Position numbers and translations under genes: made by a program. A DNA stretch of 64,000 bases from Pseudomonadota bacterium (GTDB taxonomy: Bacteria > Pseudomonadota > Alphaproteobacteria > MPNO01 > UBA2964), in assembly GCA_036336885.1 (NCBI GenBank), contig JAYZFG010000007.1, forward strand, positions 51,978-115,977, read 5' to 3'. Below the pieces are notes generated by a model. That model was not told where the DNA came from, did not search any database, and was given only the letters and a program-made list of their open reading frames with translations. Below, one piece after another: positions 1-34,451 of the stretch (the first letter of the stretch is position 1; each line of letters starts with the position of its first letter).

Positions 1-1130
1 TTTGGAGTAGCCTTATCAACAGTGATAATCGTTACCCGCAAAAGGCCGGTAAGGGGTTCATGGAGCGAAACCTTTTTTACCCCTTTAATTCCAAGTGCAT
101 CTCGTAAATGGGCAAGAAAGAGCGGCTCATAAGCCACCCGCTTGATCACACTTGATTCGGAAGGCGCTGCTTGGCTGATGTAAGAGGTCAAAATAGCATT
201 TTTACGGTGAGTGATCGCCGTAACCTGCATTGGCATGTTAAATTCTTCTAATGCAACGTGACCATGGCTCTCGCCGAACGGGCCCTCTGGTTCAACCATT
301 TCTGTATCAATAACACCCTCTATCACCAATTCAGATTCAGCAGGTACCAGTAAATCAACGGTCCGTGCTTTTACTAAATTGATAGGGGCCCCGGCCAATC
401 CTCCAGCAACACCTACCTCATCCATGTCCAGGGGTAGTTTCTGTGGGCCCATAAATGCGACCGTCGGGGGACAACCTAGGACAATAGCCACGGGCATTTT
501 TTTATCACCTCGTGCCTGGTGCTTTTTGTAATGGGCGTAACCTCCAGCCCCTCCAACTCGGGTGGCCATCCGGACCACCATCCGGTCAGATGCTTTCAAT
601 GCTGCGCGATAGGTCCCCATATTTTGTACACCTGTTTCAGGATCCTGCGTGACCACGTTCGTCGAGGTGAGAGTCGGCGCAGCATCAAATCCCGGCGTTG
701 AGACCGGTATTGGTAAAGAGTCAATTCCGCACCCCTCTCCCAGAAGAGCCTCGTCTTCTATGATGACTTCGTGGCAGGGAGCTTCCTTTATAACAACCGG
801 ATCAATCGGGTTCGCTATTGCGTCATCCCATTTTTTTCCAATTCCCTCCACCGGTACACCCATGCCAATACTGTAAATGTCCTGATTTGCCGCTAGGGCG
901 CCTACAACGATTGGAAGTTCATATTTACGACCCTTGGCGTTGACAACATTCTTGAAAAGGAAAGCCCTACGTTCGCTTTCCTTCAAGCCGCCGACGAACT
1001 GCCAACGGACAAGTGCGTGCATTTCTGAATCTTTATCTACGGGTTCATTTACGGTAACGAGAAGCCCAGCTTTGTCTAAGGCTTCTATGTGATCATGAAG
1101 ATCGGGATAGTCTCGTCTAGGGCTACTCAT
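1..1130 (-). CDS. UbiD-family (prFMN-dependent) aromatic acid decarboxylase, paralog 1. The start codon is at 1130 and the C-terminus runs off the window edge, so it is absent from the ORF track.
   Basis: Manual translation of the reverse strand from the ATG at 1130 gives MSSPRRDYPDLHDHIEALDKAGLLVTVNEP...VTQDPETGVQNMGTYRAAL...GPFGESHGHVALEEF..., the typical UbiD/3-octaprenyl-4-hydroxybenzoate carboxy-lyase fold pattern. The frame stays open to position 1. Confidence 0.8.
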   Translation of the reverse strand, partial: MSSPRRDYPDLHDHIEALDKAGLLVTVNEPVDKDSEMHALVRWQFVGGLKESERRAFLFKNVVNAKGRKYELPIVVGALAANQDIYSIGMGVPVEGIGKKWDDAIANPIDPVVIKEAPCHEVIIEDEALLGEGCGIDSLPIPVSTPGFDAAPTLTSTNVVTQDPETGVQNMGTYRAALKASDRMVVRMATRVGGAGGYAHYKKHQARGDKKMPVAIVLGCPPTVAFMGPQKLPLDMDEVGVAGGLAGAPINLVKARTVDLLVPAESELVIEGVIDTEMVEPEGPFGESHGHVALEEFNMPMQVTAITHRKNAILTSYISQAAPSESSVIKRVAYEPLFLAHLRDALGIKGVKKVSLHEPLTGLLRVTIITVDKATP

Positions 1131-1291
1131 TTTTATAACATCTCTTGTGGTCAATTTTGCTTTGAACCTGCCATACCACACAGTGACGTGTTGACAACCC
1201 CCCAGTCGCTCCATATCCATGGAAGCAATTCTTTAACTACTGAGTAATTCTTTTTATAGGCGCGATATTTGAAGTTAGATTTATAGACACT

Positions 1292-2173
1292 ATGAAAGCC
1301 GCTCCTTTTGATTACATCCGAGTAAATACACTGGATGAAGCCTGTAAGGCTCTCTCTGAATCTGGTGAGGACGCCCGAATTATTGCGGGAGGTCAAACAC
1401 TTGTGCCTTTAATGGCAATGCGTCTCGCCCGCCCGTCACTTTTGATAGACATAAATGACGTCGAAGAACTCTCAGGTATTTCTATTGAAGGCGAACACCT
1501 TGTGATAAAGGCTGGAACAAGACAGGTAAAAGCACTCTCTTCGGAAATTGTCAGAAAAAAAATACCCTTACTTGCTGAAGCGTTATCTCATGTTGGCCAT
1601 ACTCAAACGCGGAACCTCGGAACCGTAGGCGGCAGCTTAGTGAATGCTGACCCCTCCGCTGAGATTCCTTTGATAGCACAAACCCTGGAAGCCACGATCC
1701 TAGTACAAAGCGTGCGCGGCAAAAGAAGTATAGCCGCTAGTGAGTTTTTTGAGGCAGCAATGGTAACCTGCTTAGCCCCAGACGAATGTCTCGTCGAAGT
1801 TTGTTTTCCAATCTGGCCCGAAAAGAGGAATGGTTATGGATTTCACGAAGTGAGTATAAGAGACAGCGACTACGCCCTGGCTGCTGCCGCCGCACAGCTG
1901 ACATTGGACGGTAGTGATAACTGTAAAAAACTATCGTTATCCATTTGCGGAGCGTCGCCCACAGCAATTCGCCTAAAACCAGTGGAGGAATCACTGTTAG
2001 GAAAACCCCCTCTAAATCAGGTTATTGTTGAAGCCTGCGAAATTATAGACGATTTAATAGACCCACAGGCTGACGTGCACGCGGATGCCAACTATCGTGG
2101 CCGGGTTGCAAAGGTAATGGCTCGACGGGCCATTTCCGATGCGCGAGATCGGGCAAAAGGTTTTTTAAAATGA
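1292..2173 (+). CDS. Molybdenum hydroxylase medium (FAD-binding) subunit, CoxM/XdhB-like, module 1
   Basis: 293 aa with the FAD_binding_5 pattern: N-terminal F.Y....LDEA..L..SG.DARIIAGGQTL, then GTVGGSL. It overlaps the next gene by 4 bp. Confidence 0.85.
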   Translation: MKAAPFDYIRVNTLDEACKALSESGEDARIIAGGQTLVPLMAMRLARPSLLIDINDVEELSGISIEGEHLVIKAGTRQVKALSSEIVRKKIPLLAEALSHVGHTQTRNLGTVGGSLVNADPSAEIPLIAQTLEATILVQSVRGKRSIAASEFFEAAMVTCLAPDECLVEVCFPIWPEKRNGYGFHEVSIRDSDYALAAAAAQLTLDGSDNCKKLSLSICGASPTAIRLKPVEESLLGKPPLNQVIVEACEIIDDLIDPQADVHADANYRGRVAKVMARRAISDARDRAKGFLK

Positions 2174-2652
2174 GCGAGTATAAAATTACTTTGGAGTTGA
2201 ACGGTCACGAAGTCTCTGGCAACGCCGAAGCTCGGATAACATTGGTAGATTTTCTCCGAGACAACCTAGATCAGACGGGAACGCACATCGGCTGTGAACA
2301 CGGTGTCTGCGGTGCCTGCTCGGTTATCTTCGATGGCCGCCCAATTCGATCTTGCCTAATTTATGCTGTCATGGCGAATGGTCATAAAATTACGACGGTC
2401 GAGGGTCTTGAAAAGACAAATGGTGCACTTAGTCCATTACAAGATGCATTTTGGGAAAATCACGCGATGCAGTGTGGCTACTGTACCCCGGGGATGCTAA
2501 TAGCTACCCATGCCTTATTGCAGGAAAATCCGGACCCCAGTGACGAAGAAATCCGTGAAGCCATTGGGGGAAATCTCTGCCGATGTACGGGATACCAACA
2601 GATTATAGAGGCTGTCCAATCCGCTGCGAAAAAAATGCGGGAGATACCCTGA
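2170..2652 (+). CDS. Molybdenum hydroxylase small (2Fe-2S) subunit, CoxS/XdhA-like, module 1
   Basis: 160 aa with the two [2Fe-2S] cysteine clusters GCEHGVCGACSV and QCGYCTPGM...CRCTGY. Confidence 0.9.
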   Translation: MSEYKITLELNGHEVSGNAEARITLVDFLRDNLDQTGTHIGCEHGVCGACSVIFDGRPIRSCLIYAVMANGHKITTVEGLEKTNGALSPLQDAFWENHAMQCGYCTPGMLIATHALLQENPDPSDEEIREAIGGNLCRCTGYQQIIEAVQSAAKKMREIP

Positions 2653-5045
2653 TGGCTAGTGCATCAACAAATAGCGGATTTCGGTATATAACAAAAAAGC
2701 GCCGAGTTACCGAAGACCGAAGATTTGTCACTGGGCGTGGTAACTTTGCTGCAGATTATAAATTACCGGGAATGCTACATGTTGCTATGGTTACAAGTCC
2801 CTACGCCTGCGCGGAAATTAAATCTATCGACCCTGATGCTGCATTAGAGATCCCCGGTGTCCGGTACGTCCTGACTGGGGCTGAATTATTTGAAAATATC
2901 AATCCGCTCCTCTCCGGTCTGGATCTCCCCAACGTCAAACGTATACCCCTCGCGCATGAGCGCGCTCGATATGCTGGTGAATGGGTGGCAGCCGTGGTCG
3001 CAGAAACGCGTCATATAGCCGAAGATGCCGCAGAACTGGTTCAAGTGGACTACAACCCCATTGATTTTGTTATTGACCCAGAAGAGGCTATGAAGCCAGG
3101 GGCACCTATGGTTCATCCACAGCATGGAAGCAACATTCTATGTGATAAAACTTGGAATTGGGGTGACGTCGATAAAGATTTTTCTGAGGCATCCAATACT
3201 ATAGCTTTTCGAGTGAAATGGAGTAGAAATTCAACCATTCCGATCGAAACATTTGTGGTTACAGCCAAGTGGGATGAGGGCAAGGAGGTGCTGGACGTTT
3301 GGGCATCCATCCAGATGCCTAAATACCCCGAGCAAATAGCTAGAGCATTAAGCCTGCCCGTTAACGCAATAAACGTACATTTCGATGTTGATGTTGGTGG
3401 CTCATATGGGCTAAAGCGCGGCATAAGGCAAACGGTTATTGTCAGCTATTTAACACGGAAGCTGCGTGCACCAGTTCGTTTTAATGAAGACCGACTGGAA
3501 AATTTATCTGGAGGCGAAATGCACGGCCCAGATCGAATTTTCGACATGGAAGCCGCATACGAGGATGATGGGGTTATTAGTTCAATTCGCATAAAAGCTA
3601 CAGATGATGCAGGGTGTTATCCTGGCCGCGCACCCCTTCAACTGGGAAAACCGGTCAGCGCAATTGTTGGCCCCTATCGTATAAAAAGCGCTTCTTACAA
3701 TGCAATCTCCGTGACAACAAATAAAACCAGTCAAGAAGCCGTTCGCGGATTTGGACAGGCACCGACAAATTTCGCCATCGAAACAATGGTAGACAAGGTC
3801 GCTTTTGAACTTGGACTGGGTCGGGACGAAATTAGGCGCCGAAACCTCATCCGGTCGGATGAGTTTCCTTATCGAATTCCATCAGGTTCTGAATACGACA
3901 GTGGAGATTATCATAATGTCCTCTCAAAGCTGCAGAAAACTGCTGACTGGGATGGACTTATTGCCAAAAGAAATAAATTGCGAAATTCCGGAAAACTGGC
4001 TGGCGTTGGACTTTCGACTTGTCTTGAACCCTCTGGAGGAAACTCATCATTTGAGCCTTTCCTCAACCCAAAAAATGATACAACCACGTGGATGGAATCA
4101 TGCTTGATCAAGGTTGATATGCTGGGGTCAATTACCGCTATGATGGGAACGTCTACCTCTGGTCAGGGCCACGAAACCTTACTCTCAACTGTAATAGGCG
4201 AAGTACTTGAACGCGATCCGGATAGTGTCCGCGCAGTTCACTCCGAATCTCTTGGGGCGTTACCTTCAAATAGCCCGGTTGGCAGCCGAATGGCTATTAT
4301 GCTCGGAGGGGCCGCCGCGGGCGCAGCAGATAAAATTAAGAAACAACTTCTTGAAATTGCGGCCCATAACTTTCAACTGCCTGTTGAACGGTTGGTTTAT
4401 ATTGACGGAGATATTTCAGTCGACGGTGACCCCGAAAAACTAATGACGTGGAACACGCTAGTGGATATAGCCCATCGCAATTATCACAAAATGCCATTGG
4501 GCTCAGAACCAGGGTTACAAGCTCAACACACCTGGGAGGTGCCGACCGGTGGTGCGTTACCAGCAGAAGACGGTACCGTTCAAATGTACCCCTGTTATGC
4601 TTTCGAGGCTCATATTCCCCTGGTTACCATTGATCCGGAAACAGGTCAGGTGGAGATTTTAGACTACTACATGGGTCATGATTGCGGAACCGTCTTAAAC
4701 CCAGATATCGTCCGGGGCATGACATTGGGTGGAATTGCCCACGGTATTGGTGCGGCGCTATATGAAAAATTTGAGTATGATGAGGGGGGGCAACATTTGT
4801 CGGGTTCTTTCATGGATTATCTTCTCCCATCATCTCATGAAATTCCTCATATCGAGATGATCAAACATTACACGCCATCACCGTTGACTACGTTCGGCCA
4901 AAAGGGTTCTGGCGAATCGGGATACCTCGGTACCCCGGCAGCTATTGCTGGCGCTGTCAATGATGCACTATCTCCACTTGGAAAATCTATCGAAACAATT
5001 CCAATGCGGGTTCGCGATATCGAATCCCTTATCAATAGTCAGTAG
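2652..5045 (+). CDS. Molybdenum hydroxylase large (molybdopterin-binding) subunit, xanthine dehydrogenase/aldehyde oxidase family, module 1
   Basis: ~797 aa containing GGSYGLK (equivalent to the GGGFGxK Mo-site region) and a C-terminal GESG motif. The start is set at ATG 2652, which overlaps the upstream TGA. The 2583 start in the ORF track would overlap the 2Fe-2S gene. Confidence 0.85.
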   Translation: MASASTNSGFRYITKKRRVTEDRRFVTGRGNFAADYKLPGMLHVAMVTSPYACAEIKSIDPDAALEIPGVRYVLTGAELFENINPLLSGLDLPNVKRIPLAHERARYAGEWVAAVVAETRHIAEDAAELVQVDYNPIDFVIDPEEAMKPGAPMVHPQHGSNILCDKTWNWGDVDKDFSEASNTIAFRVKWSRNSTIPIETFVVTAKWDEGKEVLDVWASIQMPKYPEQIARALSLPVNAINVHFDVDVGGSYGLKRGIRQTVIVSYLTRKLRAPVRFNEDRLENLSGGEMHGPDRIFDMEAAYEDDGVISSIRIKATDDAGCYPGRAPLQLGKPVSAIVGPYRIKSASYNAISVTTNKTSQEAVRGFGQAPTNFAIETMVDKVAFELGLGRDEIRRRNLIRSDEFPYRIPSGSEYDSGDYHNVLSKLQKTADWDGLIAKRNKLRNSGKLAGVGLSTCLEPSGGNSSFEPFLNPKNDTTTWMESCLIKVDMLGSITAMMGTSTSGQGHETLLSTVIGEVLERDPDSVRAVHSESLGALPSNSPVGSRMAIMLGGAAAGAADKIKKQLLEIAAHNFQLPVERLVYIDGDISVDGDPEKLMTWNTLVDIAHRNYHKMPLGSEPGLQAQHTWEVPTGGALPAEDGTVQMYPCYAFEAHIPLVTIDPETGQVEILDYYMGHDCGTVLNPDIVRGMTLGGIAHGIGAALYEKFEYDEGGQHLSGSFMDYLLPSSHEIPHIEMIKHYTPSPLTTFGQKGSGESGYLGTPAAIAGAVNDALSPLGKSIETIPMRVRDIESLINSQ

Positions 5046-5078: not shown

Positions 5079-5801
5079 ATGGGTAATGAACTTATAATTA
5101 AACAAAATGGACGGATTTTAGAAGCAACCTTCAACCGAGAGGATAATTCCTGCTCTGATGCCATGGCGGCTGAACTCTCGGCTTCCATGCTGTCAGCGCA
5201 TGAGACATCCGATATGGTTTTACTAAGGAGTACTGGGCCAGACTTTTGTACAGGTCGGGCCAGAAATGCTGACGCTGGAAAACCCGATCCAGAAGCATAC
5301 AAACGTAGACCGGAATACGACTCTATTTTCAACTGCTATAAAGCTATCCGAAATTCGCAAGTTCCGATCGTCGGTGTCATTGAAGGTCGCTGCATGGGAT
5401 TTGGAACAGCTGTGGCTTCGCTTTGTGACGTTTCTTTCGCCAGCAGCACCGCAACTTTCAATATTCCGGAAATAGAACACAACGTCATGCCTACTATGGT
5501 TATGTCGGCGCTATACGACCGCATAAATAGGAATGCAATTTTATGGATGACTTACACCGCACAATTTATCGATGCTGAACGGGCATTATCGTATGGCCTC
5601 GTCAGCCACGTGGTCAATGCCGATAGAGTAAATACCGAAGTCGACGAATTTTGCAAAATTCTTTTAAGCCGGCCCCGCCCGGCGATCTTGGGTCTCAAAG
5701 AATACCTCCACGTTGCTCCTAGGATGGACGAACTGGGCGCTATCGACTATGCGCGTGCCCTGCACTCCATGGTTAATACGGCGTCCGATATGAAAAAATA
5801 A
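5079..5801 (+). CDS. Enoyl-CoA hydratase/isomerase (crotonase-fold) family protein
   Basis: 240 aa with the crotonase oxyanion-hole-like segments TGPDFCTGRARN and GRCMGFGTAVASLCDV. There is an RBS-like GAGGGAA upstream. Confidence 0.7.
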   Translation: MGNELIIKQNGRILEATFNREDNSCSDAMAAELSASMLSAHETSDMVLLRSTGPDFCTGRARNADAGKPDPEAYKRRPEYDSIFNCYKAIRNSQVPIVGVIEGRCMGFGTAVASLCDVSFASSTATFNIPEIEHNVMPTMVMSALYDRINRNAILWMTYTAQFIDAERALSYGLVSHVVNADRVNTEVDEFCKILLSRPRPAILGLKEYLHVAPRMDELGAIDYARALHSMVNTASDMKK

Positions 5802-5809
5802 GTGATGTC

Positions 5810-6805
5810 ATGATAATCGATACCCATGCCCACTACCTTCCACAAACGATGCTGGAAAACCTGAATAATCATCGGTCTATGTTCCCGAATATTGATTGTA
5901 TGAATGAGGACGGCATATGGAAACTGGGCTTTGCTGGAGGCTCTCTTACGCGCCCAATACTCCCGGGGCTACGTCAGGCGGAATCCAGGCTTCAATGGAT
6001 GAACGAACAAAAAATTGATGTAATGGTTTGCGGCGGTTGGCTCGATAGTTTTGGATACGAGATCCCTGATGATGAAGGGAAGCGTTGGAGCCAATTTATA
6101 AATGATCACCTCTTGCAAGCCTGCTCTGAAACCGAGCGGTTTGCTCCTCTCTGCAGTGTTCCCCTGCAAAATGGTAAGATGGCTGCCGAGATTTTAGAGC
6201 AAGCGATCGACACAGGATTTCATGGGGTAATGATTGGGACCCAACCGAAAGGTGGGGAGGGTAATTTAGATGATCCAATCCTTGACCCGTTTTGGGAGTT
6301 AGCGTCAGATCGGAAAGCAACCATTTATTTACATCCAATGTTTGGATGCGGCGATCCTCGTCTTCTCGATTACGGTCTGGTAAATACAGTTGGGCGCGGC
6401 CTGGACACAATTTCCGCCATGTCTCGACTAATATTTGCCGGACACTTGAAAAAATATCCGGGCATGAATTTTGTCCTTAGTCACGGTGGTGGCGGCCTAC
6501 CCTTTTTACTCGGTCGCATGCAGATGAATCACGACCAAAACCCTAAATTGGGAAACCCCCGGGAAAGCTTGGAGACATGCTATTACGATACAGTTGTCCA
6601 TGATGTGAAAACGTTAGAATTCGTATGCCGAATGTTTGGGCCTGATAGGGTAATGATGGGATCAGATTATCCCTTCAGCTTTGGTGACCTCGAACCATGC
6701 AAAATAATCGAAGAGAGCAAACTTGCGGATAAAGAAAAGCAAGATATTTTGGGTAACGTGGCAAAACGCGTGTTCCATATAGAAAATTGTAGTTGTAATC
6801 ATTAA
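5810..6805 (+). CDS. Amidohydrolase-2 family (ACMSD/LigW/gamma-resorcylate-type) metal-dependent decarboxylase or hydratase
   Basis: 331 aa with N-terminal MIIDTHAHYLP (HxH metal ligands), an internal LSHGGGGLP and a C-terminal MMGSDYPF (the Asp ligand). These are hallmarks of PF04909. Confidence 0.8.
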   Translation: MIIDTHAHYLPQTMLENLNNHRSMFPNIDCMNEDGIWKLGFAGGSLTRPILPGLRQAESRLQWMNEQKIDVMVCGGWLDSFGYEIPDDEGKRWSQFINDHLLQACSETERFAPLCSVPLQNGKMAAEILEQAIDTGFHGVMIGTQPKGGEGNLDDPILDPFWELASDRKATIYLHPMFGCGDPRLLDYGLVNTVGRGLDTISAMSRLIFAGHLKKYPGMNFVLSHGGGGLPFLLGRMQMNHDQNPKLGNPRESLETCYYDTVVHDVKTLEFVCRMFGPDRVMMGSDYPFSFGDLEPCKIIEESKLADKEKQDILGNVAKRVFHIENCSCNH

Positions 6806-6865
6806 TAACAATAAGATTACCCAACAAATTATAGAAATTGGTGATCGCAAGGGAACCTTGGAAAA

Positions 6866-8056
6866 GTGAAAATGAGCCGATTAGACCACTGTTACAATAT
6901 TGCAGACTTGAGAAATGCAGCCAAGAAACGCCTTCCACGGGGTGTATTTGATTATATTGACAAGGGAACCGAGGACATGATGTCTCTCGGTAATAACCGC
7001 AAGGCAATAACTGATATAAAATTACTGAACAAAGTCATTACGGATATTTCTGATGTAAAGCTAGATTCAAATATTTTTGATCGTGCCGCCGCAATGCCAC
7101 TTGCCATTGCACCAACCGGCACGGCGGGTTTGGCTTGGTATGAGGGTGAGTTTGAACTCGCAAAAGCAGCAGCGAAGACAGGTGTTCCCTTTACGCTGGC
7201 TACCGGCTCAAACACTCCGATGGAGAAACTTGCGAATGAGGCGGGCGGTCGACTGTGGATGCAACTATACATGTGGAAAGAAAAACACTACTCGGATGAC
7301 CTGGTCCGAAAAGCGGCACGAAACGGTTTTGAAGCATTACTATGGACGGTGGATATAGGACATGGTGCCAACCGGGAACATAACCTTCGTAACGGATTTG
7401 CTACGCCTTATGTTTTAAACACAAAGTCCGTCATTGACATGCTTCGTCACCCCGCATGGCTATCCACTGTTATGGGCCGATACTTCATAAATGGGGGTAT
7501 GCCGCGTCATGTTAACTATCCTGAAGGATATCAGATGCCAATTACTGGCAATGTGTCAAAAATGGAAGATAAAAAACCGACTACCAAACGGGCGGATAAG
7601 TTGTCTTGGGATGACGTTGACCGGTTAAGAGACATATTCCCAGGAAAGCTCTTAATAAAAGGTATTATGCGGCCAGATGATGCTGCTGAAGCTATTGAAC
7701 ATGGGGTGGATGGGATTGTTATATCAAATCATGGCGGACGTAATATGGACAGTGCGCCCGCTCCGATCCAAGTTCTTCCGGACATTGTAAAAGCTGTTGA
7801 AGGAAAAATGACAATTATTGTTGATAGCGGCGTGCGCCGTGGCAGTGACGTCGTAAAATATTTGGCGCTGGGCGCTGACGCAGTCCTTGCAGGACGTGCA
7901 ACACTCTATGGAACGGCAGCGGGTGGCGAAGCTGGGGCAATAAAAGCCATAAATCTCCTGAAAGATGAGATGAAAAGAACTATGGCCTATATTGGCACGC
8001 AACGCGTTACCGACATCAGTAGCGACGCTATTTGGAAGAATTCTTTACCCTCTTAG
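6866..8056 (+). CDS. FMN-dependent alpha-hydroxy acid dehydrogenase/oxidase (L-lactate, glycolate or mandelate dehydrogenase family)
   Basis: 396 aa with the VISNHGGRNMD active-site motif, DSGVRRGSDVVKYLALGA, and an inserted loop typical of the membrane-associated LldD/MdlB type. Confidence 0.85.
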   Translation: MKMSRLDHCYNIADLRNAAKKRLPRGVFDYIDKGTEDMMSLGNNRKAITDIKLLNKVITDISDVKLDSNIFDRAAAMPLAIAPTGTAGLAWYEGEFELAKAAAKTGVPFTLATGSNTPMEKLANEAGGRLWMQLYMWKEKHYSDDLVRKAARNGFEALLWTVDIGHGANREHNLRNGFATPYVLNTKSVIDMLRHPAWLSTVMGRYFINGGMPRHVNYPEGYQMPITGNVSKMEDKKPTTKRADKLSWDDVDRLRDIFPGKLLIKGIMRPDDAAEAIEHGVDGIVISNHGGRNMDSAPAPIQVLPDIVKAVEGKMTIIVDSGVRRGSDVVKYLALGADAVLAGRATLYGTAAGGEAGAIKAINLLKDEMKRTMAYIGTQRVTDISSDAIWKNSLPS

Positions 8057-9453
8057 TCTAAAATCTCTTCCAGGTTAATACGATCCCACACTTCCTTTGG
8101 TGGCTTAATTGGTTCCTCAAAATCAAGAGTTGCAGGGCGAGTTGCATCTATAATAACCTTAGTGTTCATAGGACCAGATTCTGTGCGCACCTCCCCGTAC
8201 GCTGCCGGGTTTAAGTGAGATCCCATTGCGTTTGGTATTATTGCAAGATCTCTATCTGCTTCAAAAGTGGTTCCAATCGCCCATAACACGCGCTCCTCGT
8301 TATAGATATCGATATCATCGTCAACCACAATTGCAATTTTAATATTTGGATTCGCCGTCAATGCCGCCATGCCCGCTGACTTTCCCTCACCAGGCACGCG
8401 TTTTTTTATGGATACATACACGGTAAAGCGACAAGAACCCGATACCGGCATATAAACACCGGTAACAGTTGGGCAAAGATGTTTAACGCTATCGTAAACG
8501 GTACTTTCGAGACCTAGTGCGCCAGCCAAGTTATGCTCTTGATGAGCAGGATCGAGATCGTGAAATATTGCATCTTCTCTCATAGTGACTGCCGTAACCT
8601 TCATCATCCCAACTGGGTCCTTAGCCGGTCCATAATACCCCGTGAATTCTGCGAAGGGACCGTCTTTGGTCTCATGGGCGGGGTCTAAATAGCCTTCAAT
8701 GGCGATCTCCGCAAATGCTGGAACTGGAATATCAACAGTTTCGCCGTCGACAACCTCTAGGGGCTCCCCAAGCAATCCTCCCATTACCTCCAACTCACTT
8801 AAATCCATTGGCCCTTCACATAATGTACCAATAAGAGCAGCCGGGTGATGACCCAGAAAGAGGACCGCCTCCATCCGTTTGTTCAGTTCTTTGTAGCGCC
8901 GGTAAATATAGCCCGCGTGATGAGCTGGATTAAACATGCATCCAAGCAAATTTTTACCCTGCAGCTCGTGTCGATACATTCCTGCATTAAGTACTCCTGT
9001 ATCAGGATCTTTAACTACCAAGACACCAACGGTAATATACTTACCAGAATCATTTTCAGCGTGATGAACGATAGGGAGTTTTGACAAGTCAACATCATCA
9101 TTCATAAAGACGCGTTGTTTTACAGGGGCTTGGGACCTCTCAACTGATTTAGTGGGAAGGGGTTTTGCTTCTCTTTCAATGAAACGTTGAAGGATTGAAC
9201 TCTTCGGTTCAAGAGGATCAACGCCTAAAGCGAGACCAAGTAAATCGTAACTCCCAAAAACATTGGTCACCAATGGATGCTCGGAGCCATTTACCTTTTC
9301 ACAACGAATTACCGGATAGCGCCCCTCTGCGGCCAATTTTTGTTGTATTACACAAGGCTCAAAAATAGGATCAACCGGCTTTGAGACATTAGCGTAAAAG
9401 GCGGAACCTAATTGCCTCGCTTCACCGATAAATGATCTTAGATCTTTATTCAT
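8053..9453 (-). CDS. UbiD-family decarboxylase, paralog 2
   Basis: 466 aa: ...VVKDPDTGVLNAGMYRHEL...KDGPFAEFTGYYG...IAIVVDDDIDIYNEERVLWAI... It is convergent with the upstream plus-strand operon, with a 4-bp overlap. Confidence 0.85.
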   Translation of the reverse strand: MNKDLRSFIGEARQLGSAFYANVSKPVDPIFEPCVIQQKLAAEGRYPVIRCEKVNGSEHPLVTNVFGSYDLLGLALGVDPLEPKSSILQRFIEREAKPLPTKSVERSQAPVKQRVFMNDDVDLSKLPIVHHAENDSGKYITVGVLVVKDPDTGVLNAGMYRHELQGKNLLGCMFNPAHHAGYIYRRYKELNKRMEAVLFLGHHPAALIGTLCEGPMDLSELEVMGGLLGEPLEVVDGETVDIPVPAFAEIAIEGYLDPAHETKDGPFAEFTGYYGPAKDPVGMMKVTAVTMREDAIFHDLDPAHQEHNLAGALGLESTVYDSVKHLCPTVTGVYMPVSGSCRFTVYVSIKKRVPGEGKSAGMAALTANPNIKIAIVVDDDIDIYNEERVLWAIGTTFEADRDLAIIPNAMGSHLNPAAYGEVRTESGPMNTKVIIDATRPATLDFEEPIKPPKEVWDRINLEEILD

Positions 9454-9550
9454 TTTAATATTCCGAGCATTTATAAAGTTATTTCGGTAGATACTTTACT
9501 ACATAACGCGATTATTAACATTTTGATACAGTTTTAGACTATCGAAAGAA

Positions 9551-10345
9551 TCAATTTTGACGACGCGCCACCCCCGGCATTGCAGTAAAGAAAAACAAGA
9601 GCATGGACACCACTACAATAGATGGCCCTGCGGGGGTATCAATATAGGCGGAGGCTGCAAGGCCACCTAACACCGAGATTGCACCCAAAATTATCGCATA
9701 AAATGCCATCTGCTCAGGCGTTCGGGAAAACCTCCTAGCGGTTGCCGGCGGAATGATTAGTAAGGAGATGATTAGCAATATTCCAACAATTTTCATTGAA
9801 ACCGCTATTACAAATGCGATCATCAACATAAAAATCAATCTGACCCTGCCTAATGGAACACCATCAACAAGCGCCAGACCCTCATGTACCGTCATTGACA
9901 ATAGCCCACGCCAAATCAGAGCTAACAGTATGAGGCATACCACAGCACCACCATAAACCCAGATTAAGTCAAAGGGTGAGACCGACAGAATATCACCAAA
10001 CAAATACCCCATGAGATCAATTCGCACATTATCCAAGAAGGCAACTACGACCAATCCTAGCGCCAACATTCCATGGGCTAGAATTCCAAGTATTGTATCT
10101 GATGCAAATCTTTGGTCACCCTCCATGGCGTAGAGGGCAGTTGATATAGCTACACAGATTGCTATCACACCCAGTAACGGATTTAAATCAAGTATAAGGC
10201 CGAGGGCTACTCCTAAAAGTGCAGAGTGGGAGAGTGTAGCACCAAAATAGGACATGCGACGCCAAACCATGAAACAACCCAAAGGACCAGCGATGATCGT
10301 AACACCCACGCCCGCCGCAAATGCTAATAGAAGAAAATCATCCAT
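9551..10345 (-). CDS. znuB: Zinc/manganese ABC transporter permease ZnuB
   Basis: Polytopic membrane protein of the ABC-3 family. The start is reassigned to the internal Met (MDDFLLLAFAAG) so it does not overlap the znuC stop. Confidence 0.8.
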   Translation of the reverse strand: MDDFLLLAFAAGVGVTIIAGPLGCFMVWRRMSYFGATLSHSALLGVALGLILDLNPLLGVIAICVAISTALYAMEGDQRFASDTILGILAHGMLALGLVVVAFLDNVRIDLMGYLFGDILSVSPFDLIWVYGGAVVCLILLALIWRGLLSMTVHEGLALVDGVPLGRVRLIFMLMIAFVIAVSMKIVGILLIISLLIIPPATARRFSRTPEQMAFYAIILGAISVLGGLAASAYIDTPAGPSIVVVSMLLFFFTAMPGVARRQN

Positions 10346-11129
10346 TGCCGGCCTCTTGCCGTTGATTCCCAGTCTCTTTAATAGGAGTTCCAGCGAGATC
10401 ATGCCGATGATCATGATGATGGGTATAGAAAGCTAATGCCGAATCTACAGTATCTGACCCAAACATTTCCAGATAAGCTGGGTTGCGGCTAACTGTATCG
10501 GGTTTTCCTTCACAGCAGATATGATTATTAAGGCAAATAACATGGTCGGTAGCGGCCATCACGAGATGTAAATTGTGGGAAACCAACAAAATACCGCATT
10601 TACGACGATCACGAATAGCCCTAATCAATTCATAAAGCTCACCCTGCCCCGCAAAATCAATACCAGCAGTAGGCTCATCTAAAACCAGCAATTCTGGTTC
10701 ACGTAATAAAGCCCTAGCTAACAACACACGACGTAATTCACCCCCTGAAAGTCCTTGCACAGGAATATCAAGCGAAGTTGAAAAACCGACTTCCCTAAGA
10801 GTAGTCTCCAAATTTGGCAGTGAATTACGAGCCCCGAGAAAAAGGAAACGTCTTACATCTAGAGGCAAAGTGGGGTCTATTTCGAGTTGTTGTGGGACAT
10901 AGCCTATGACGAGCCCTGGTTTTCGTTCTACTCGTCCACTATCACATTTAATCAATTTAAGAAGGGCGTTAATCAATGTTGATTTACCGGCACCATTTGG
11001 CCCCACCAACGTAACAATTTCACCAGAATTTACACTTAGGCTAATATTATCGACAACCGGTTTCCCCCCCCTAGAAACTGTCAGGTCAGTCGCCCGAATA
11101 AGCGCTCCGTCATCCAAATCTTCAATCAT
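10338..11129 (-). CDS. znuC: Zinc ABC transporter ATP-binding protein ZnuC with a His-rich C-terminal tail
   Basis: Walker A GPNGAGKST, ABC signature LSGGELRRVLLARAL, Walker B LLVLDEP, and the tail ...HHHDHRHDLAG. The start is probably the internal Met at 11129, just after the zur stop. Confidence 0.85.
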   Translation of the reverse strand: MIEDLDDGALIRATDLTVSRGGKPVVDNISLSVNSGEIVTLVGPNGAGKSTLINALLKLIKCDSGRVERKPGLVIGYVPQQLEIDPTLPLDVRRFLFLGARNSLPNLETTLREVGFSTSLDIPVQGLSGGELRRVLLARALLREPELLVLDEPTAGIDFAGQGELYELIRAIRDRRKCGILLVSHNLHLVMAATDHVICLNNHICCEGKPDTVSRNPAYLEMFGSDTVDSALAFYTHHHDHRHDLAGTPIKETGNQRQEAGNG

Positions 11130-13450: not shown

Positions 13451-15040
13451 TTATATGGTGGGCGGCGGCTCAGCAGCAAACTCTGTGCCAGAAAGACAAA
13501 GACGACCTTCGGGATCTTGCCAGAGTTTATTGGCAGCATGGAGCTCTCCAATCGCTCGCGTGACTGCCTTGAAGCCCTCGCCTTCAAAAGTTTTGGCAAG
13601 CTCTTCAAAATATAATGGCTTCTTCTCTATCAAAAATTCAATGCGCACAGCAAGCTCAGTGATATCTACATCAACTGATTGCTTGGCCGTTTCTTCTCCT
13701 GCACCCAAATAATCTTTCAAATCCACCTGGTTTGCATAAGCGTATTCAATGCGCTCAAAACGCTCACGCGGCAGGTCGTCAGGAATTGTTGCATCAATAC
13801 CGCATTTGGTTGTTATAGGTGTCCGACCAGGGGTAGCCTTTAGGCTGGGATCCAACGGTTTGGCGCGAAGATCGGGGATTATAACAATGTCACGGTCCGC
13901 TTGAACCCGCGTCGCGATTGCCCACTCAACATCAGTTCCGTTAAAAACATCTATATCTTCATCAACCACGACAACATGCTTTATATCCGAGGCAACGAGT
14001 GCCGCCATGATTGCGTGCTTAGCATCACCGGGCCGCTTTCGAATAGAAACAATAGCATGGAAATAGCAGGATCCGCCGGGGGTAATATTCACATTAACCA
14101 GGTCAAGGTTTGCGGTTTTAAAAGCACGCCTTACCGCGGCCTCGCGGTTGGGCGCCCCAGGCAATATCACCTCCCAAGGCATATGAAGAGCATAATACAT
14201 TGCATCTTTACGCATAGAAATTGCTTTAATTTTCACCTGCGGGTTCCAGTGAAGTCCTCCCATAAGACGGGTAAACTCACCAAAACGCCCCTCAGGTTTG
14301 GTCCAACCAGTCGGCAGAATTTCGGCTTCTAAAACAATTTCAGCATCCGCAATACACGGAACATCAACTGTCTCCCCGGGAGTAAGTTGGATAGGACCTC
14401 CCAGCATACCACCGGCTATAGCCAATTCGCTCTGGCCCATTGGCGCCCTATATGTTGCACCTACATTGATCGCCAAATGAGTACCTATATTAATTGAAAT
14501 TGGTAGAGATTCATTGCGGCGGAAAGCTTCCAAAGCCAGCAATTGAAGATCATTAGGTGTAACGATATCAATGCCTGTTAGGTTTTTTTCGCGTAATAAG
14601 AACCTATAAATTCCAGCGTTAAGAGAACCACTACTACTCTTAGCAATTGTTACCCCTGCGGTTATCATGGGGCCGCCATCATGAATTGAGAAAAGCGGTA
14701 CGGGCAATTCAAATAAGTCAACATCATCATCAACCATTAGAATTTGGCGAACGGGTCCACCGTTAATTAATTCGGGCTCTATGGGACTTGATAGACCTTC
14801 ATCAAGGCGTCTATAGACATCTTCGTATAGACAATCGAATGCCGCTCCAATGCGTTCTCTAGAATTAGCAACACCCGAGATAACCGGCATCGCGTAATCA
14901 TTAACATTGTGAAAGACTAGAGCTTTCTCCGATTTGTCGACTAACGTAGCAATGTGGCGAATATCGACAGGTTTGGTGATATCCTCAACATGTCCGTCAC
15001 GGCGCAAATTTTCGACTATATCACGAAAACTGGTTGTCAT
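13451..15040 (-). CDS. UbiD-family decarboxylase, paralog 3, with a ~75 aa C-terminal extension
   Basis: 529 aa. The core resembles paralog 2 (LNAGIYR, GRFGEFT, VVVVDEDIDVFNG), followed by the extra tail SVDVDITELAVRIEFLIEKKPLYFEELAKTFEGEGFKAVTRAIGELHAANKLWQDPEGRLCLSG. Confidence 0.85.
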   Translation of the reverse strand: MTTSFRDIVENLRRDGHVEDITKPVDIRHIATLVDKSEKALVFHNVNDYAMPVISGVANSRERIGAAFDCLYEDVYRRLDEGLSSPIEPELINGGPVRQILMVDDDVDLFELPVPLFSIHDGGPMITAGVTIAKSSSGSLNAGIYRFLLREKNLTGIDIVTPNDLQLLALEAFRRNESLPISINIGTHLAINVGATYRAPMGQSELAIAGGMLGGPIQLTPGETVDVPCIADAEIVLEAEILPTGWTKPEGRFGEFTRLMGGLHWNPQVKIKAISMRKDAMYYALHMPWEVILPGAPNREAAVRRAFKTANLDLVNVNITPGGSCYFHAIVSIRKRPGDAKHAIMAALVASDIKHVVVVDEDIDVFNGTDVEWAIATRVQADRDIVIIPDLRAKPLDPSLKATPGRTPITTKCGIDATIPDDLPRERFERIEYAYANQVDLKDYLGAGEETAKQSVDVDITELAVRIEFLIEKKPLYFEELAKTFEGEGFKAVTRAIGELHAANKLWQDPEGRLCLSGTEFAAEPPPTI

Positions 15041-16009: not shown

Positions 16010-16012
16010 ACG

Positions 16013-17425: not shown

Positions 17426-17474
17426 AAGATTAGAATAAGGGCCACACCATCGTTTCGGACTATTTCACGAGTAA

Positions 17475-28106: not shown

Positions 28107-28619
28107 ATGATGAAGTTACTCAGATCAGTATTACTCAACCGCCATAAAGTGATAATAATTACAGCGATCACCTCTGCCAGTTTACTCCTAGCCGTGTTTA
28201 TCTTGCAGTATCTCGTTGGTATAGAACCATGCAGCCTTTGTATAACGCAACGTTGGCCCCATGCCTTGGTATTAATGTTGAGTTTGTGCGCCCTACTGCC
28301 CATAATGGCTAAGTTTAGACGTCCCATTTTAGCGTTAATTGGCCTAGCATTTGCGACAACTGCGAGTATTGGCGCCTATCATCTCAGTATTGAGTTTGGA
28401 TGGGTCGCAGGACCCGCTACATGTTCAGGTAATATCACTGGTGACACTGTTGAAGAACTTCGCCGCCAACTTATGGCGAAGCCTTTTGCAAAGTGTAGTG
28501 ATATAGCGTGGTCCTTATTTGGGGTTTCCCTTGCCGGGTACAATTTTATGATATCGACTTTTCTCACAATAGTTTGCGGAACATCGGTAATCTTAAATTT
28601 CAAAAGGGCCAAGAAGTGA
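28107..28619 (+). CDS. dsbB: Disulfide bond formation protein B (DsbB)
   Basis: ~170 aa, four TM segments, a first periplasmic CxxC (EPCSLCITQRW) and a second Cys pair (GPATCSGN...AKCSD). Confidence 0.7.
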   Translation: MMKLLRSVLLNRHKVIIITAITSASLLLAVFILQYLVGIEPCSLCITQRWPHALVLMLSLCALLPIMAKFRRPILALIGLAFATTASIGAYHLSIEFGWVAGPATCSGNITGDTVEELRRQLMAKPFAKCSDIAWSLFGVSLAGYNFMISTFLTIVCGTSVILNFKRAKK

Positions 28620-28657
28620 CTGTTAAAAAGTCAAAAAAAATCACCGGGGCAGGAAGA

Positions 28658-29185
28658 ATGCATGGGGATCCAACACGTGAAGAGATGGTGCATTCCATGA
28701 TTAGGGTGAATCACGCTGGAGAACACGGTGCCGTCAGAATTTATCAAGGCCAATTAGCAGTTCTAACAGGCTCCAAAGCGGAACAGCCCATACGCGAGAT
28801 GATGGAACAAGAACAACACCACCTGGATACATTCGATGAAATGATTGCAGACCGGCGTGTCCGCCCGACCGCTCTTGCTCCTCTATGGCATGCTGCGGGA
28901 TTTGCGCTTGGAGCTGGTACTGCTTTACTAGGAAAGAACGCAGCCATGGCCTGTACACAAGCTGTTGAAGAGGTGATAGACGAACATTACGAAAAACAAG
29001 GAAAACAACTTGGAGATGACGAAAAGGAATTGCGCGAAACGGTAAACGAATTTCGTGCTGATGAGTTGGCTCATAGGGACAAAGCTGTTGAAGAAGGCGC
29101 AGAGAATATGCAAGGTCATAAAATCCTGTCGGGCGCCGTAAAAACAGGTGCGCGATTGGCCATTTGGCTCTCAAAGCGAATTTAG
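28658..29185 (+). CDS. coq7: Demethoxyubiquinone hydroxylase Coq7 (ferritin-like di-iron carboxylate protein)
   Basis: MHGDPTREEMVHSMIRVNHAGEHGAVRIYQGQ...EQEQHHLDTF...ELAHRD shows the two ExxH di-iron motifs. Confidence 0.8.
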   Translation: MHGDPTREEMVHSMIRVNHAGEHGAVRIYQGQLAVLTGSKAEQPIREMMEQEQHHLDTFDEMIADRRVRPTALAPLWHAAGFALGAGTALLGKNAAMACTQAVEEVIDEHYEKQGKQLGDDEKELRETVNEFRADELAHRDKAVEEGAENMQGHKILSGAVKTGARLAIWLSKRI

Positions 29186-31177: not shown

Positions 31178-31256
31178 TAGGTTATTATCGTTTCTTCAAA
31201 TTACATTTGATCGCTAAAGTTTTTTTTGTTCAAATAAATTTTGCTATGGGGAAGAC

Positions 31257-32111: not shown

Positions 32112-32114
32112 ATT

Positions 32115-32966
32115 TTATGCGGTCCTCTTGCTCCTGACCGCTAACACATACGAACTACCAAATATAATCATCGCCCCAAGCCAAGTCCAAAAATCTCCTG
32201 TTTCTGAAAACAAGATAAAAGCTGCCAAAGCCGTCATGGGCATACGCAGAAAATCGAAAGGCATCACTGCGCTAGCATCTGCTATAGCAAAAGAACGAGC
32301 ATAAGCATAGACCGCTATTGTGCCATTGACGCCAATCGCGATGAATATCGGAATATCTTCCAATGTCGGAGTAACCCAAAATATAAGTGCCGGGACCATT
32401 GCAATTGGAAACATTAATAAATTGAAATAGAATACCGATTGTTTGGCTGTATCCGTTGTCATCAAACGCTTTACACAGATATTAGAAACAGCGTAGGAAA
32501 ATGCGGACACCAAAACTAAAATTGTTGCCAACTCTACACTAATTACACCCGGCCTTATTATAACAAGTAAACCTAGAAACCCTATTATCACGGCCACCCA
32601 ACGCTCACTTGTCACGGTCTCTTTAAGAATTAACGCCGCCAGTAGGACAACGAATAATGGTTGTGTGAAACTCAGGGCCGTCACATCAGGAAGCGGTATT
32701 TTTGCGATTCCGTAAAATAATAACAAAACACCAATATATGAAAGCAGAGCTCTAAGGCAGTGTAAGGGCAGACGCTGCGTTTTAAGGGTTGAAAACCCTG
32801 CATTCATTGCCGGAGGCAGCAAAATAAAGACAGCGACAACATTTCGAAAAAACAGAATTTGGAAAGATGAATAATCATATGATAACTGGCGCACTAGGAT
32901 CGTCATGAACGTCCAACACAAACCTGCAAGGACCATCCAGGCCGCACCCCGCAGATTACTATTCAT
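32115..32966 (-). CDS. DMT-superfamily (EamA-like) transporter
   Basis: 283 aa, 10 TM segments, duplicated EamA domain. Confidence 0.7.
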   Translation of the reverse strand: MNSNLRGAAWMVLAGLCWTFMTILVRQLSYDYSSFQILFFRNVVAVFILLPPAMNAGFSTLKTQRLPLHCLRALLSYIGVLLLFYGIAKIPLPDVTALSFTQPLFVVLLAALILKETVTSERWVAVIIGFLGLLVIIRPGVISVELATILVLVSAFSYAVSNICVKRLMTTDTAKQSVFYFNLLMFPIAMVPALIFWVTPTLEDIPIFIAIGVNGTIAVYAYARSFAIADASAVMPFDFLRMPMTALAAFILFSETGDFWTWLGAMIIFGSSYVLAVRSKRTA

Positions 32967-32993
32967 TAAACTACAATTCCTGAACCGGGTTTA

Positions 32994-34451
32994 TTATTTT
33001 CCGCCTTTGACGAAACTATCCGGCAAAACGCTGCTCCATTTAGCGCGAATCCGAGAATCAAGATCGGGACTATTTCGTGCTACGATTGGAAAAGTCTCAC
33101 GACGTTTGAATGGTATGCAAGCGTCAACCACTACACGCGCGTTACGGCGATCTGTTTCATCATCGAAACACATTGGATCAAGGTGAGAACTCCACCCCCC
33201 CGAAATAACATCAACATCATCGCGGGGATCACAACGTGTACACATAGACCAGAGAACGTCATTTATGTTGGTAGGGTCTATGTCTTCGTCAACAACCACC
33301 GTCCAGCGATTGCAATAGGCTCCTGCTAGGCATTGCGATGCCACCAAACCAGCCTGCTTAGCGTGACCCCCATATAATTGTTTTATTGCGACTGTGAGCC
33401 AGAAACGGCTACCCCCGGCTTCATGCGCCCATACTCCTTTTATCTCAGGAATTCCTGCAGCTTCAAGCTGTGACCAAACAGCACCACAGCGATAATGACC
33501 CAAATAATACGTATTATCATTTGGAGGGATGGCCGGTACAGCCCCCATAAGAACGGGGTTGTTTCGGTGCATCATTGTCTCAACCCGAATGGCAGGTTCC
33601 AGTCTTTGTCCACCGGCATAATACCCTGTCCACTCACCGAGAGGCCCTTCGACAACTTCATCCTCTGGATGTATATAACCTTCAAGGGAGATCTCCGCAT
33701 TTGCTGGGACGGGCAGACCGGTTTTGGGCATATTTATAATTTCAATTGCCTCATCAAATATTCCACCAGCCGCTTCATATTCACTCTTACCATAAGGAAT
33801 TTCGAGACCAGCAAGCATAAATAAAGCAGGATGCATGCCGAAAACAGCTGCAACAGGGCAAGGCTCGCCTCGCGAATGATACTTCTCCATAATTAACCGA
33901 CCATGCTTGCCCGGAGACATCATCACGGAGGCCACATCAGGTTCATGGACCTGCATCCGATAGGTACCGTAGTTAATCCAACCACTATCGGGGTCCTTCA
34001 TAACCACCATGCACGCCGTTCCAATAAAGTGACCGCCGTCATGCTCATGCCATACGGGAGTTGGTATCGACGTCAGGTCAACATCTCCACCCTCGGTGAC
34101 ATTATCAAGGAGAGGTCCTCCATTAACTTGTTTTGGCGGCACTGAGGGGGCATCACCCATATACTTCCGCCACCACTGTACCAACTCCATCTCGGAAGCA
34201 TCCTCTGGTAGACCCAGGGCCAAATTTATACGAGGTGTTGAGGTCAGGAGGTTAGATAGAACTCGATGGCCATTTGGAAAACCCGGAATATCGTCAAACA
34301 TAAGCGCCGGATTGCCCATCTTGCGCTGAACAATATCAACGATACCACCAATATCTTCCTTTGGTTCTGCACCTGAAATTTTATGCAATTCCCCTGCCGC
34401 ATCAATTTCATCGATCCAGTTCCGTAAATCTTTATTGGCCACCGTGGTCAC
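32994..34451 (-). CDS. UbiD-family decarboxylase, paralog 4
   Basis: 485 aa: ...VMKDPDSGWINYGTYRMQV...GPLGEWTGYYAGG...WTVVVDEDIDPTNINDVLWSM... Among the in-window paralogs it is closest to paralog 1. Confidence 0.85.
   Translation of the reverse strand: MTTVANKDLRNWIDEIDAAGELHKISGAEPKEDIGGIVDIVQRKMGNPALMFDDIPGFPNGHRVLSNLLTSTPRINLALGLPEDASEMELVQWWRKYMGDAPSVPPKQVNGGPLLDNVTEGGDVDLTSIPTPVWHEHDGGHFIGTACMVVMKDPDSGWINYGTYRMQVHEPDVASVMMSPGKHGRLIMEKYHSRGEPCPVAAVFGMHPALFMLAGLEIPYGKSEYEAAGGIFDEAIEIINMPKTGLPVPANAEISLEGYIHPEDEVVEGPLGEWTGYYAGGQRLEPAIRVETMMHRNNPVLMGAVPAIPPNDNTYYLGHYRCGAVWSQLEAAGIPEIKGVWAHEAGGSRFWLTVAIKQLYGGHAKQAGLVASQCLAGAYCNRWTVVVDEDIDPTNINDVLWSMCTRCDPRDDVDVISGGWSSHLDPMCFDDETDRRNARVVVDACIPFKRRETFPIVARNSPDLDSRIRAKWSSVLPDSFVKGGK

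Follow-up and report, generated by a model that had tools for sequence, protein, structure and literature searches.

How did four genes of one enzyme family come to lie close together on a bacterial chromosome, and what does each of them do there? The question is raised by a 64,000-nt stretch of contig JAYZFG010000007.1, referred to here as the window, which comes from the chromosome of an uncultured marine alphaproteobacterium and holds four genes of the UbiD family of decarboxylases, labelled U1 to U4. The gene sets for two molybdenum (Mo) hydroxylases lie divergent from U1 and U4 and are labelled M1 and M2, respectively. It is likely that U1–U4 are four independent catabolic decarboxylases dependent on prenylated flavin mononucleotide (prFMN), that they represent three lineages, that two of them belong to conserved hydroxylase-coupled modules, and that the four were assembled by accretion.

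The four open reading frames (ORFs) that the earlier note had picked out by reading this DNA, all on the minus strand, are present, and all match the Pfam UbiD family. Membership was judged with Pfam PF01977 (the UbiD Rift-related domain), UbiD_N, and UbiD_C; UbiD_N was matched in all four proteins, and UbiD_C in U2, U3, U4, and the corresponding region of a full-length U1 ortholog. U1 has only 376 amino acids because the start of the window cuts the gene; its ortholog in a related locus from a metagenome-assembled genome (MAG), L005 (labels of this kind denote individual homologous loci in other genomes or metagenomes), is 97% identical and 551 amino acids long. U2, U3, and U4 are each full length relative to their own homolog families. 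The catalytic Arg of the NxGxYR motif occurs in all four (QNMGTYR in U1, LNAGMYR in U2, LNAGIYR in U3, and INYGTYR in U4), as does the Glu/Asp-x4-Glu pair (EGPFGE, DGPFAE, EGRFGE, and EGPLGE, in the same order), and the Mn-binding Asn of NxGxYR and Mn-binding Glu are likewise kept. In 50 members of the U1 clade, the N, R, E, and E-x4-E residues are invariant. These are thus genuine UbiD-family proteins with catalytic residues retained, as had been proposed, and neither failure of the fold nor ablation of the residues was seen. Each of the four has a large homolog family at 60–90% identity, indicating strong purifying selection on each. None reached an NCBIfam equivalog cut-off; with the phenylphosphate carboxylase beta model, U4 scored 296 bits against a cut-off of 469.

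The four proteins are only distantly related to each other. Pairwise identity by BLASTP is 23–34%, with 34% for U2 and U3 and 29% for U1 and U4, the same value as for U1 and U2 and for U2 and U4. A neighbor-joining tree was built with reference sequences recovered from annotated records, namely E. coli UbiD, a Paracoccus UbiD from a UbiU/V cluster, PpcA/B, VdcC, phthaloyl-CoA decarboxylase, and the UbiD of a Cupriavidus hmf cluster. In this tree U4 grouped with PpcB-like and U4-like proteins, U1 formed its own clade, and U2 and U3 lay deep in an HmfF-like group; E. coli UbiD and the Paracoccus UbiD grouped with none of them. Structural neighbors in the PDB follow a similar division: HmfF (6H6V) for U2 (E 7e-80) and U3 (E 3e-78), and 7PDA (E 1.1e-113) for U4, which is PhdA, a phenazine-1-carboxylate decarboxylase (PMC10850782). 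U1 has poor matches in the PDB, the best being HmfF (5e-31, or 3e-35 with the full-length ortholog). By sequence, the four therefore fall into three deep lineages: U1; U2 and U3, which belong to two different HmfF-like families; and U4, which resembles PhdA and the phenylphosphate carboxylase beta subunit. This differs from the two subtypes that the earlier note had drawn from motifs. Its N[MY]GTYR of U1 and U4 and LNAG[MI]YR of U2 and U3 were found as described, but the second motif, (I/V)VVDDDID, occurs only in U2 (IVVDDDID), with VVVDEDID in U3 and U4 and IAVNEDID in U1, so DDDID defines no U2/U3 subtype; U1 and U4, moreover, are no nearer to each other than either is to U2 and lie in different clades.

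U1 and U4 each form a conserved divergent gene pair with their own three-subunit Mo hydroxylase of the xanthine dehydrogenase (XDH) family, and the pairing of these two genes with hydroxylases, which had been noticed in the window, is kept in other genomes. A scan of species-representative genomes with U1 gave 466 relatives, and loci were compared for the best 80 of the 466, which are 70–97% identical to U1; their sources are marine MAGs of the Rhodospirillaceae type and alpha- and betaproteobacteria of soil and freshwater, and among the soil members of these two classes the clade is kept at 70–77%. In the distant loci, the U1 homolog is repeatedly divergent from genes for FAD-binding, FeS, and Mo subunits (42–65% identical to M1), followed by an Amidohydro_2 gene (44–50%) and TctC receptors. 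U1 homologs beside FAD/FeS/Mo, Amidohydro_2, and TctC or DctP genes were found in many alpha- and betaproteobacterial loci, so that the conserved U1 set includes an ACMSD-type amidohydrolase and carboxylate-binding transporter proteins. Close relatives have a DctPQM system of the tripartite ATP-independent periplasmic (TRAP) type on the other side of U1 instead of TctC. For U4, a metagenome scan returned homologs 66–97% identical, with the family present at 68–78% in soil, freshwater, and marine metagenomes. Where the U4 homolog is 75–77% identical in distant loci (L113, L115, L123, L126), the adjacent hydroxylase is an M2 ortholog at 58–80%; orthologs of the M2 FAD subunit (57–65%) adjoin U4 homologs in these and in L117, and those of the large subunit in distant U4 loci are 73–74% identical. 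Other XDH-type sets accompany seven further U4-family loci, and about nine have none. A 257-residue protein family that seemed to be conserved beside U4 homologs proved to consist of antisense ORFs inside the UbiD gene.

Could the four genes have arisen by local duplication of modules, as the earlier note had favored? In such a history, one cassette of a UbiD gene and a Mo hydroxylase would have given rise to U1/M1 and U4/M2, and a second UbiD type to U2 and U3. The two modules do look alike, each having a minus-strand UbiD gene divergent from FAD-FeS-Mo genes across a spacer of similar length (161 bp for U1–M1 and 165 bp for U4–M2), and HmfF is the best PDB match of both U2 and U3. The FAD-FeS-Mo order, however, recurs in other XDH-type sets that were seen, which makes the shared order weak evidence of duplication, and M1 and M2 are only 34% (FAD), 49% (FeS), and 30% (Mo) identical to each other; U1 and U4 are 29% and U2 and U3 34% identical. 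Every gene has far nearer orthologs in other bacterial classes. Those of the hydroxylases reach 58–80% (M2) and 42–65% (M1) in distant loci and, in close relatives, up to about 96% (M1) and 91% (M2). Since distant genomes also have the U1/Mo and U4/Mo pairings, each is older than the divergence of these bacterial classes, which favors functional coupling within each pair and disfavors local duplication. With U1 and U4 in different clades as well, duplication is highly improbable, and the evidence from sequence comparison points to the accretion of independent ancient modules in a catabolic-rich region. The distance between the U4 and U1 orthologs is about 51 kb in a sister MAG, compared to 33 kb in the window.

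The claim that four copies in one neighborhood are very unusual held in part. The density, four genes in 35 kb, is far above the usual one: in a plasmid collection, the 440 records in which UbiD was matched have only 483 matching places between them, so that one copy per replicon is the rule. The wording was nonetheless too strong, because islands with several UbiD genes exist elsewhere. Paraburkholderia caribensis MBA4 has one gene similar to U4 (43%) and one similar to U1 (54%), together with an XDH set and UbiX, all within 20 kb, and six beta- or alphaproteobacterial loci (L030, L041, L034, L061, L036, L081) have two U1-type paralogs, about 75% and 57% identical to U1, in one and the same hydroxylase cluster.

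Decarboxylation of 4-hydroxy-3-polyprenylbenzoate in ubiquinone synthesis was considered as a role for one or more of the four genes, and a COQ7-type hydroxylase gene in the window indicates that the organism makes ubiquinone, though none of the four UbiDs is of the biosynthetic type. E. coli UbiD shares the fold and catalytic motifs with U1–U4 but belongs to a separate clade, and the four score 108–161 bits with PRK10922, the model of the ubiquinone enzyme, far below its cut-off of 788. They do not cluster with the Paracoccus UbiD either, and their neighbors are catabolic. That one or more of them is the ubiquinone enzyme is therefore extremely unlikely, in agreement with what had been supposed.

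Several observations nevertheless weigh against the reading of U1–U4 as four catabolic prFMN decarboxylases, two of them in coupled modules. One concerns a metal ligand. The position of the Mn-ligating His, H191 in A. niger Fdc1, is occupied by His in U2, U4, E. coli UbiD, and the HmfF-type and PhdA-like proteins, but by Arg with a GGAGG insertion in U1 and by Asn-Asp in U3; the alignment of this loop is uncertain. In U1, TRVGGAGGYAHY (window about 560–640, residues about 165–195) replaces the His loop, and in U3 (window about 14480–14560) PND stands in its stead. Without the canonical His, cofactor binding in U1 and U3 may differ, and one or both could be pseudo-enzymes or have a different cofactor arrangement. 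This is very unlikely to be the explanation, as the remaining catalytic and metal residues are all kept, the Asp of U3 could ligate Mn, and both families are under strong purifying selection. The U1 loop is nearly invariant in the 50 clade members, in which the TRVGGAGGYxHY segment has a fully conserved His a few residues downstream; such near-invariance suggests a modified site rather than decay.

A second group of such observations concerns cofactor supply and gene organization. The UbiD family needs Mn2+, K+, and UbiX (PMC7976604). No ubiX was found in the window by tblastn with E. coli UbiX (best E 0.5), and none beside U4-family loci with the same query; ubiX lies beside only 5 of 80 U1-family loci. 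The query was validated by its 52–65% matches to annotated UbiX genes elsewhere. Some alphaproteobacteria bypass UbiD and UbiX when they make ubiquinone aerobically (PMC10626278), so a housekeeping ubiX is not a safe assumption. No shared operator, inverted repeat, or regulator was found in the two divergent intergenic regions between UbiD and hydroxylase genes, and operon structure is defined here by gene spacing only. Finally, U2 and U3 have different surroundings from genome to genome, which leaves these two with the least certain roles in the window.

Table 1. Features of the window discussed in the text, with positions counted from its first nucleotide.
Feature	Position	Strand	Evidence or remark
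U1, UbiD-family decarboxylase	1..1130	minus	Pfam UbiD E 2.9e-51; N-terminal 376 aa inside window
M1 FAD-binding subunit, XDH/CoxM-type Mo hydroxylase	1292..2173	plus	PF00941, PF03450; co-conserved with U1 homologs
M1 [2Fe-2S] subunit	2170..2652	plus	PF01799 E 2.9e-34
M1 molybdopterin-binding large subunit	2652..5045	plus	PF01315, PF02738, PF20256
Crotonase/enoyl-CoA hydratase-family protein, M1 operon	5079..5801	plus	PF00378 E 3.5e-22; kept only in close relatives
ACMSD-type Amidohydro_2 protein, 331 aa	5810..6805	plus	PF04909
FMN-dependent 2-hydroxyacid dehydrogenase/oxidase, last M1-operon gene	6866..8056	plus	PF01070 E 8.6e-121
U2, UbiD-family, HmfF-like family	8053..9453	minus	Pfam UbiD E 6.5e-61; 466 aa
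U3, UbiD-family, second HmfF-like family	13451..15040	minus	Pfam UbiD E 3.6e-44; 529 aa
COQ7-type ubiquinone hydroxylase	28508-29185		DsbB and cytochrome c' adjoin
EamA/DMT-family transporter, directly downstream of U4	32115..32966	minus	PF00892
U4, UbiD-family, PhdA/PpcB-like lineage	32994..34451	minus	Pfam UbiD E 8.3e-60; 485 aa
M2 FAD-binding subunit	34617..35486	plus	PF00941, PF03450
M2 [2Fe-2S] subunit	35483..35971	plus	PF01799; 71-80% orthologs in distant U4 loci
M2 molybdopterin-binding large subunit	35975..38362	plus	Pfam; best PDB QorL 3e-133
DUF427 protein after M2	38277..38981	plus	PF04248; 57-69% orthologs, close relatives only

The M1 side of the first module is a six-gene plus-strand array (Table 1). 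The ORF of its large subunit opens at 2583, and the likely start is the ATG at 2652, which overlaps the upstream stop codon. Its best PDB matches, at E about 1e-110, are CoxL-like proteins and quinoline 2-oxidoreductase (QorL); for the large subunits of M1 and M2 alike, the nearest relatives are CoxL-like proteins, quinoline 2-oxidoreductase, and 6-hydroxypseudooxynicotine dehydrogenase. An aerobic CO dehydrogenase was considered for both and rejected: the AYR active-site motif of these enzymes, in either the AYXCSFR or the AYRGAGR form of the loop, is absent from the two large subunits, and they score 424 and 461 bits with TIGR02416 against a cut-off of 991. Naming with NCBIfam models was likewise tried for ten neighboring genes, the two large subunits included, and none passed an equivalog cut-off; the FMN_dh gene scored 304 bits with the L-lactate dehydrogenase subfamily, against a cut-off of 376. 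For the Amidohydro_2 protein, the best PDB match is ACMSD (3e-34), followed by IDCase, LigW, and gamma-resorcylate decarboxylase, and the protein is a probable metal-dependent non-oxidative decarboxylase or hydrolase judging from these relatives. U1 orthologs have a C-terminal extension of about 90 residues. In nine close relatives (L006, L009 at 2715–4247, and seven more) a 510-residue Amidohydro_1 gene lies between the Amidohydro_2 and FMN_dh genes; it is absent from the window, and Amidohydro_1 genes of similar size adjoin U2 homologs in L178 and L179. The DctPQM TRAP transporter of L005 (11798–14705) stands downstream of U1, in the position just past the window start. Its receptor has a single PDB relative, 4MNC (2e-37), whose ligand is probably benzoylformate; the match is a lead only.

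On the M2 side, genes for the FAD, 2Fe-2S, and molybdenum cofactor subunits are followed by the DUF427 gene, and close relatives have orthologs of the EamA transporter (77–81%) in the same position beside U4. Directly past this module lie an HNH endonuclease gene (38999–39559) and an ORF without a family match (39758–40252) at the border with housekeeping genes; the two may be a trace of mobility. From 40 to 64 kb, the window is occupied by housekeeping genes, including ETF, argininosuccinate lyase, diaminopimelate decarboxylase, FtsEX, tyrA, hisC, metXW, and thiolase, and the first 39 kb contains many hydrolases, oxidoreductases, and transporters. Along the whole window, GC is about 45%. Identical or almost identical copies of its genes are present in contigs of TARA and other marine metagenomes, as well as in MAGs that carry the label Rhodospirillaceae or Alphaproteobacteria (UBA2964), and the exact U3 protein is encoded on a 154.5-kb NCBI MAG contig.

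U2 and U3 stand apart from the two modules. U2 faces the FMN_dh gene, the last of the M1 operon, in convergent orientation. Among close relatives keeping that operon, U2 is present only in L005, L007, and L013; it was not found in L006, L008–L012, or L014, the flank of L010 being too short for the expected position. Its homolog family is large (66–91% identity), and the contexts of family members vary, with a DHODH-like pair, a Rieske oxygenase, or Amidohydro_1 genes as neighbors. Upstream of U2, after a gap of 97 bp, is a minus-strand set of an ABC-3 permease, an ABC ATPase, and a Fur-family regulator (9551–11649), similar to Znu/Mnt metal uptake systems. The same set is found beside the M1 operon in relatives that lack U2 (L016, L017, L021), so its adjacency to U2 is probably incidental despite the Mn2+ need of UbiD enzymes. 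U3 is apparently monocistronic and ends in a C-terminal extension of about 90 residues (window 13451–13720), different from that of U1, with no Pfam match; it is kept in length, more than 100 homologs having 528–535 residues at 99–100% coverage. Divergent from U3, at 15119–18548, are genes for a Glyoxalase_3 protein, a TcuA-like FAD_binding_2 dehydrogenase (174 bits against a cut-off of 369), and an AbrB-duplication membrane protein.

One or both of these genes might be thought true HmfF, that is, 2,5-furandicarboxylate decarboxylases, with M1 and the crotonase as the furoyl-CoA dehydrogenase and HmfE of a pathway for 5-hydroxymethylfurfural (HMF) and furfural. HmfF of Pelotomaculum thermopropionicum (6H6V) is the best structural neighbor of U2 and U3, at E about 1e-80, and weakly that of U1; JGI labels the U2 and U3 families '2,5-furandicarboxylate decarboxylase 1'; and M1 with its crotonase-family gene loosely resembles hmfABC and hmfE. 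In three distant genomes (L174, L175, and L176, at about 6200–9600), a U3 homolog of about 60% identity comes directly after a gene for a GMC oxidoreductase (HmfH is of this class) and before one for a phosphoribosyltransferase, an hmfH-hmfF-like order that makes a link to furan- or aryl-alcohol oxidation possible for the U3 family. However, the JGI names are automatic orthology-group labels, and, although U2 and U3 lie in the same broad clade as the UbiD of the Cupriavidus hmf cluster, their identities to it are only 35% and 32%. U3 differs from HmfF in its extension and U2 in the Asp at the first acidic position. The Mo subunit of M1 is 34% identical to an hmfA-type subunit, no better than that of M2 (33%), and U2 is missing from many close relatives with a whole M1 operon. 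There is no ORF of the size of a GMC oxidoreductase in the window's ORF list, no AMP-binding CoA ligase in Pfam scans of its ORFs, and no UbiX by tblastn, and no hmfG (UbiX), hmfH, or hmfD homolog near U2 or U3. Neither the close identity nor the hmf context of an HmfF ortholog was thus found for them, and membership in an HMF pathway is unlikely. The reading of U2 and U3 as independent decarboxylases of two HmfF-like families is preferred.

What might the four enzymes do? The earlier suggestion of catabolic decarboxylation of (hetero)aromatic acids fits the neighbors, among which are Mo hydroxylases, an ACMSD-type decarboxylase, and carboxylate transporters. Most likely, the enzymes decarboxylate (hetero)aromatic carboxylates non-oxidatively, U1 and U4 in combination with a ring hydroxylation that uses water, and the most plausible substrate class would be N-heteroaromatic or furan-type carboxylates. 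Here we infer substrates, order of steps, and cofactor supply. A (hetero)aromatic carboxylate would be taken up, the Mo enzyme would hydroxylate a ring carbon with oxygen from water, and the UbiD enzyme would remove the carboxyl group before or after hydroxylation. Removal would proceed by covalent catalysis on prFMN held by Mn2+ and K+, with the conserved Arg and the Glu(Asp)-x4-Glu pair, and prFMN would be supplied by a UbiX encoded outside the window. U2 and U3 could be stand-alone decarboxylases of the HmfF type for furan- or heteroaromatic acids.

A further suggestion is more tentative. The U1 clade, an uncharacterized UbiD branch of about 550 residues with the TRVGGAGGYxHY segment and a C-terminal extension, may form, with its conserved partners (an XDH-type hydroxylase of three subunits, a decarboxylase of the ACMSD type, and a carboxylate receptor of the TRAP or tripartite tricarboxylate (TTT) type), a widespread undescribed pathway for N- or O-heteroaromatic (poly)carboxylates in marine and soil Proteobacteria, and U4/M2 may represent a second one. 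UbiD enzymes are sought as reversible catalysts of carboxylation and decarboxylation, and few substrate classes are known; the window points to at least two conserved, widespread modules of UbiD and Mo hydroxylase without a characterized member, and to two large HmfF-like families that carry the database label of furandicarboxylate decarboxylase on thin evidence. Identification of the substrates would add catabolic routes for heteroaromatic acids in ocean and soil and correct automatic annotation, and the altered cofactor loop of the U1 clade could inform how prFMN is held. For the reading of genomes, there is a caution: co-located members of a family can be accreted ancient modules and not a recent expansion.

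Among characterized systems, the nearest to U4 is PhdA of Mycolicibacterium fortuitum, with which it aligns end to end (42.5% identity over 463 residues) and shares the NxGxYR motif, the His, the Glu, and the EGPxGE motif. At this identity U4 belongs to the same lineage by sequence but is probably not an ortholog. The gene settings also differ: the partners of U4 are a QorL-like Mo hydroxylase and a DMT transporter, and no UbiX adjoins it, whereas phdA in M. fortuitum presumably sits with the UbiX homolog phdB. The anaerobic phthalate island on plasmid 2 of Aromatoleum aromaticum EbN1, with three UbiD and two UbiX genes in 12 kb, is another concentration of such genes, and one of its three UbiDs, with a DMT transporter close by, shares 43% identity with U4. 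Unlike the window, the island has UbiX and CoA-transferase genes of its own, and the pathway that it serves is anaerobic and CoA-dependent; the phthaloyl-CoA decarboxylase of the island is a remote relative (E 1e-14 to 1e-17). Literature searches for a described pyridine- or quinoline-carboxylate pathway that combines a UbiD with an XDH-type enzyme gave nothing specific.

Cluster I for lumazine and pterin in Cupriavidus sp. LA-1 comprises a Mo dehydrogenase (LuDH), an Amidohydro_2 isomerase (DHLI), a UbiD (XCDC), UbiX, a GTPase, and a deaminase (PMC12391406). As it shares three enzyme classes with the window, an XDH-type hydroxylase, an Amidohydro_2 protein, and a UbiD, it might be asked whether the U1 or U4 module is itself such a cluster, with a lumazine dehydrogenase, a 6,7-dihydroxylumazine isomerase, and XCDC. 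The comparison was made against a cluster on pSymB of S. meliloti (L182, CP140937.1, 1640479–1653538) as a stand-in for the LA-1 proteins; it has exactly the published lumazine gene content, namely two amidohydrolases, UbiD, UbiX, an NCS2 permease, a GTPase, Mo/FeS/FAD subunits, and a deaminase-like amidohydrolase. Its UbiD is 25–32% identical to U1–U4 and its Mo subunit 28–31% to those of M1 and M2, and a search of the window at E 1e-3 gave no match to its two small isomerase subunits, GTPase, or deaminase. In addition, the LA-1 isomerase is a heterotetramer of two paralogous amidohydrolase subunits, always with a GTPase (PMC12391406), in contrast to the single 331-residue ACMSD-like protein of the window. 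The identification of the window modules as XCDC/lumazine clusters was accordingly rejected, being about as improbable as a local duplication. By analogy, the LA-1 cluster is nevertheless the best characterized and closest functional counterpart of the U1 module. Its logic would be the same, in that an XDH-family hydroxylase puts water-derived oxygen onto an N-heterocycle, an Amidohydro_2 protein rearranges or cleaves the ring, and a UbiD enzyme then takes off the carboxyl group. The search of the plasmid collection for a lumazine reference also yielded anaerobic-ubiquinone clusters of UbiTUV with UbiDX and an hmf-type cluster in Cupriavidus KK10, which, together with the lumazine pathway, is a precedent for catabolic clusters that combine a UbiD with a Mo hydroxylase.

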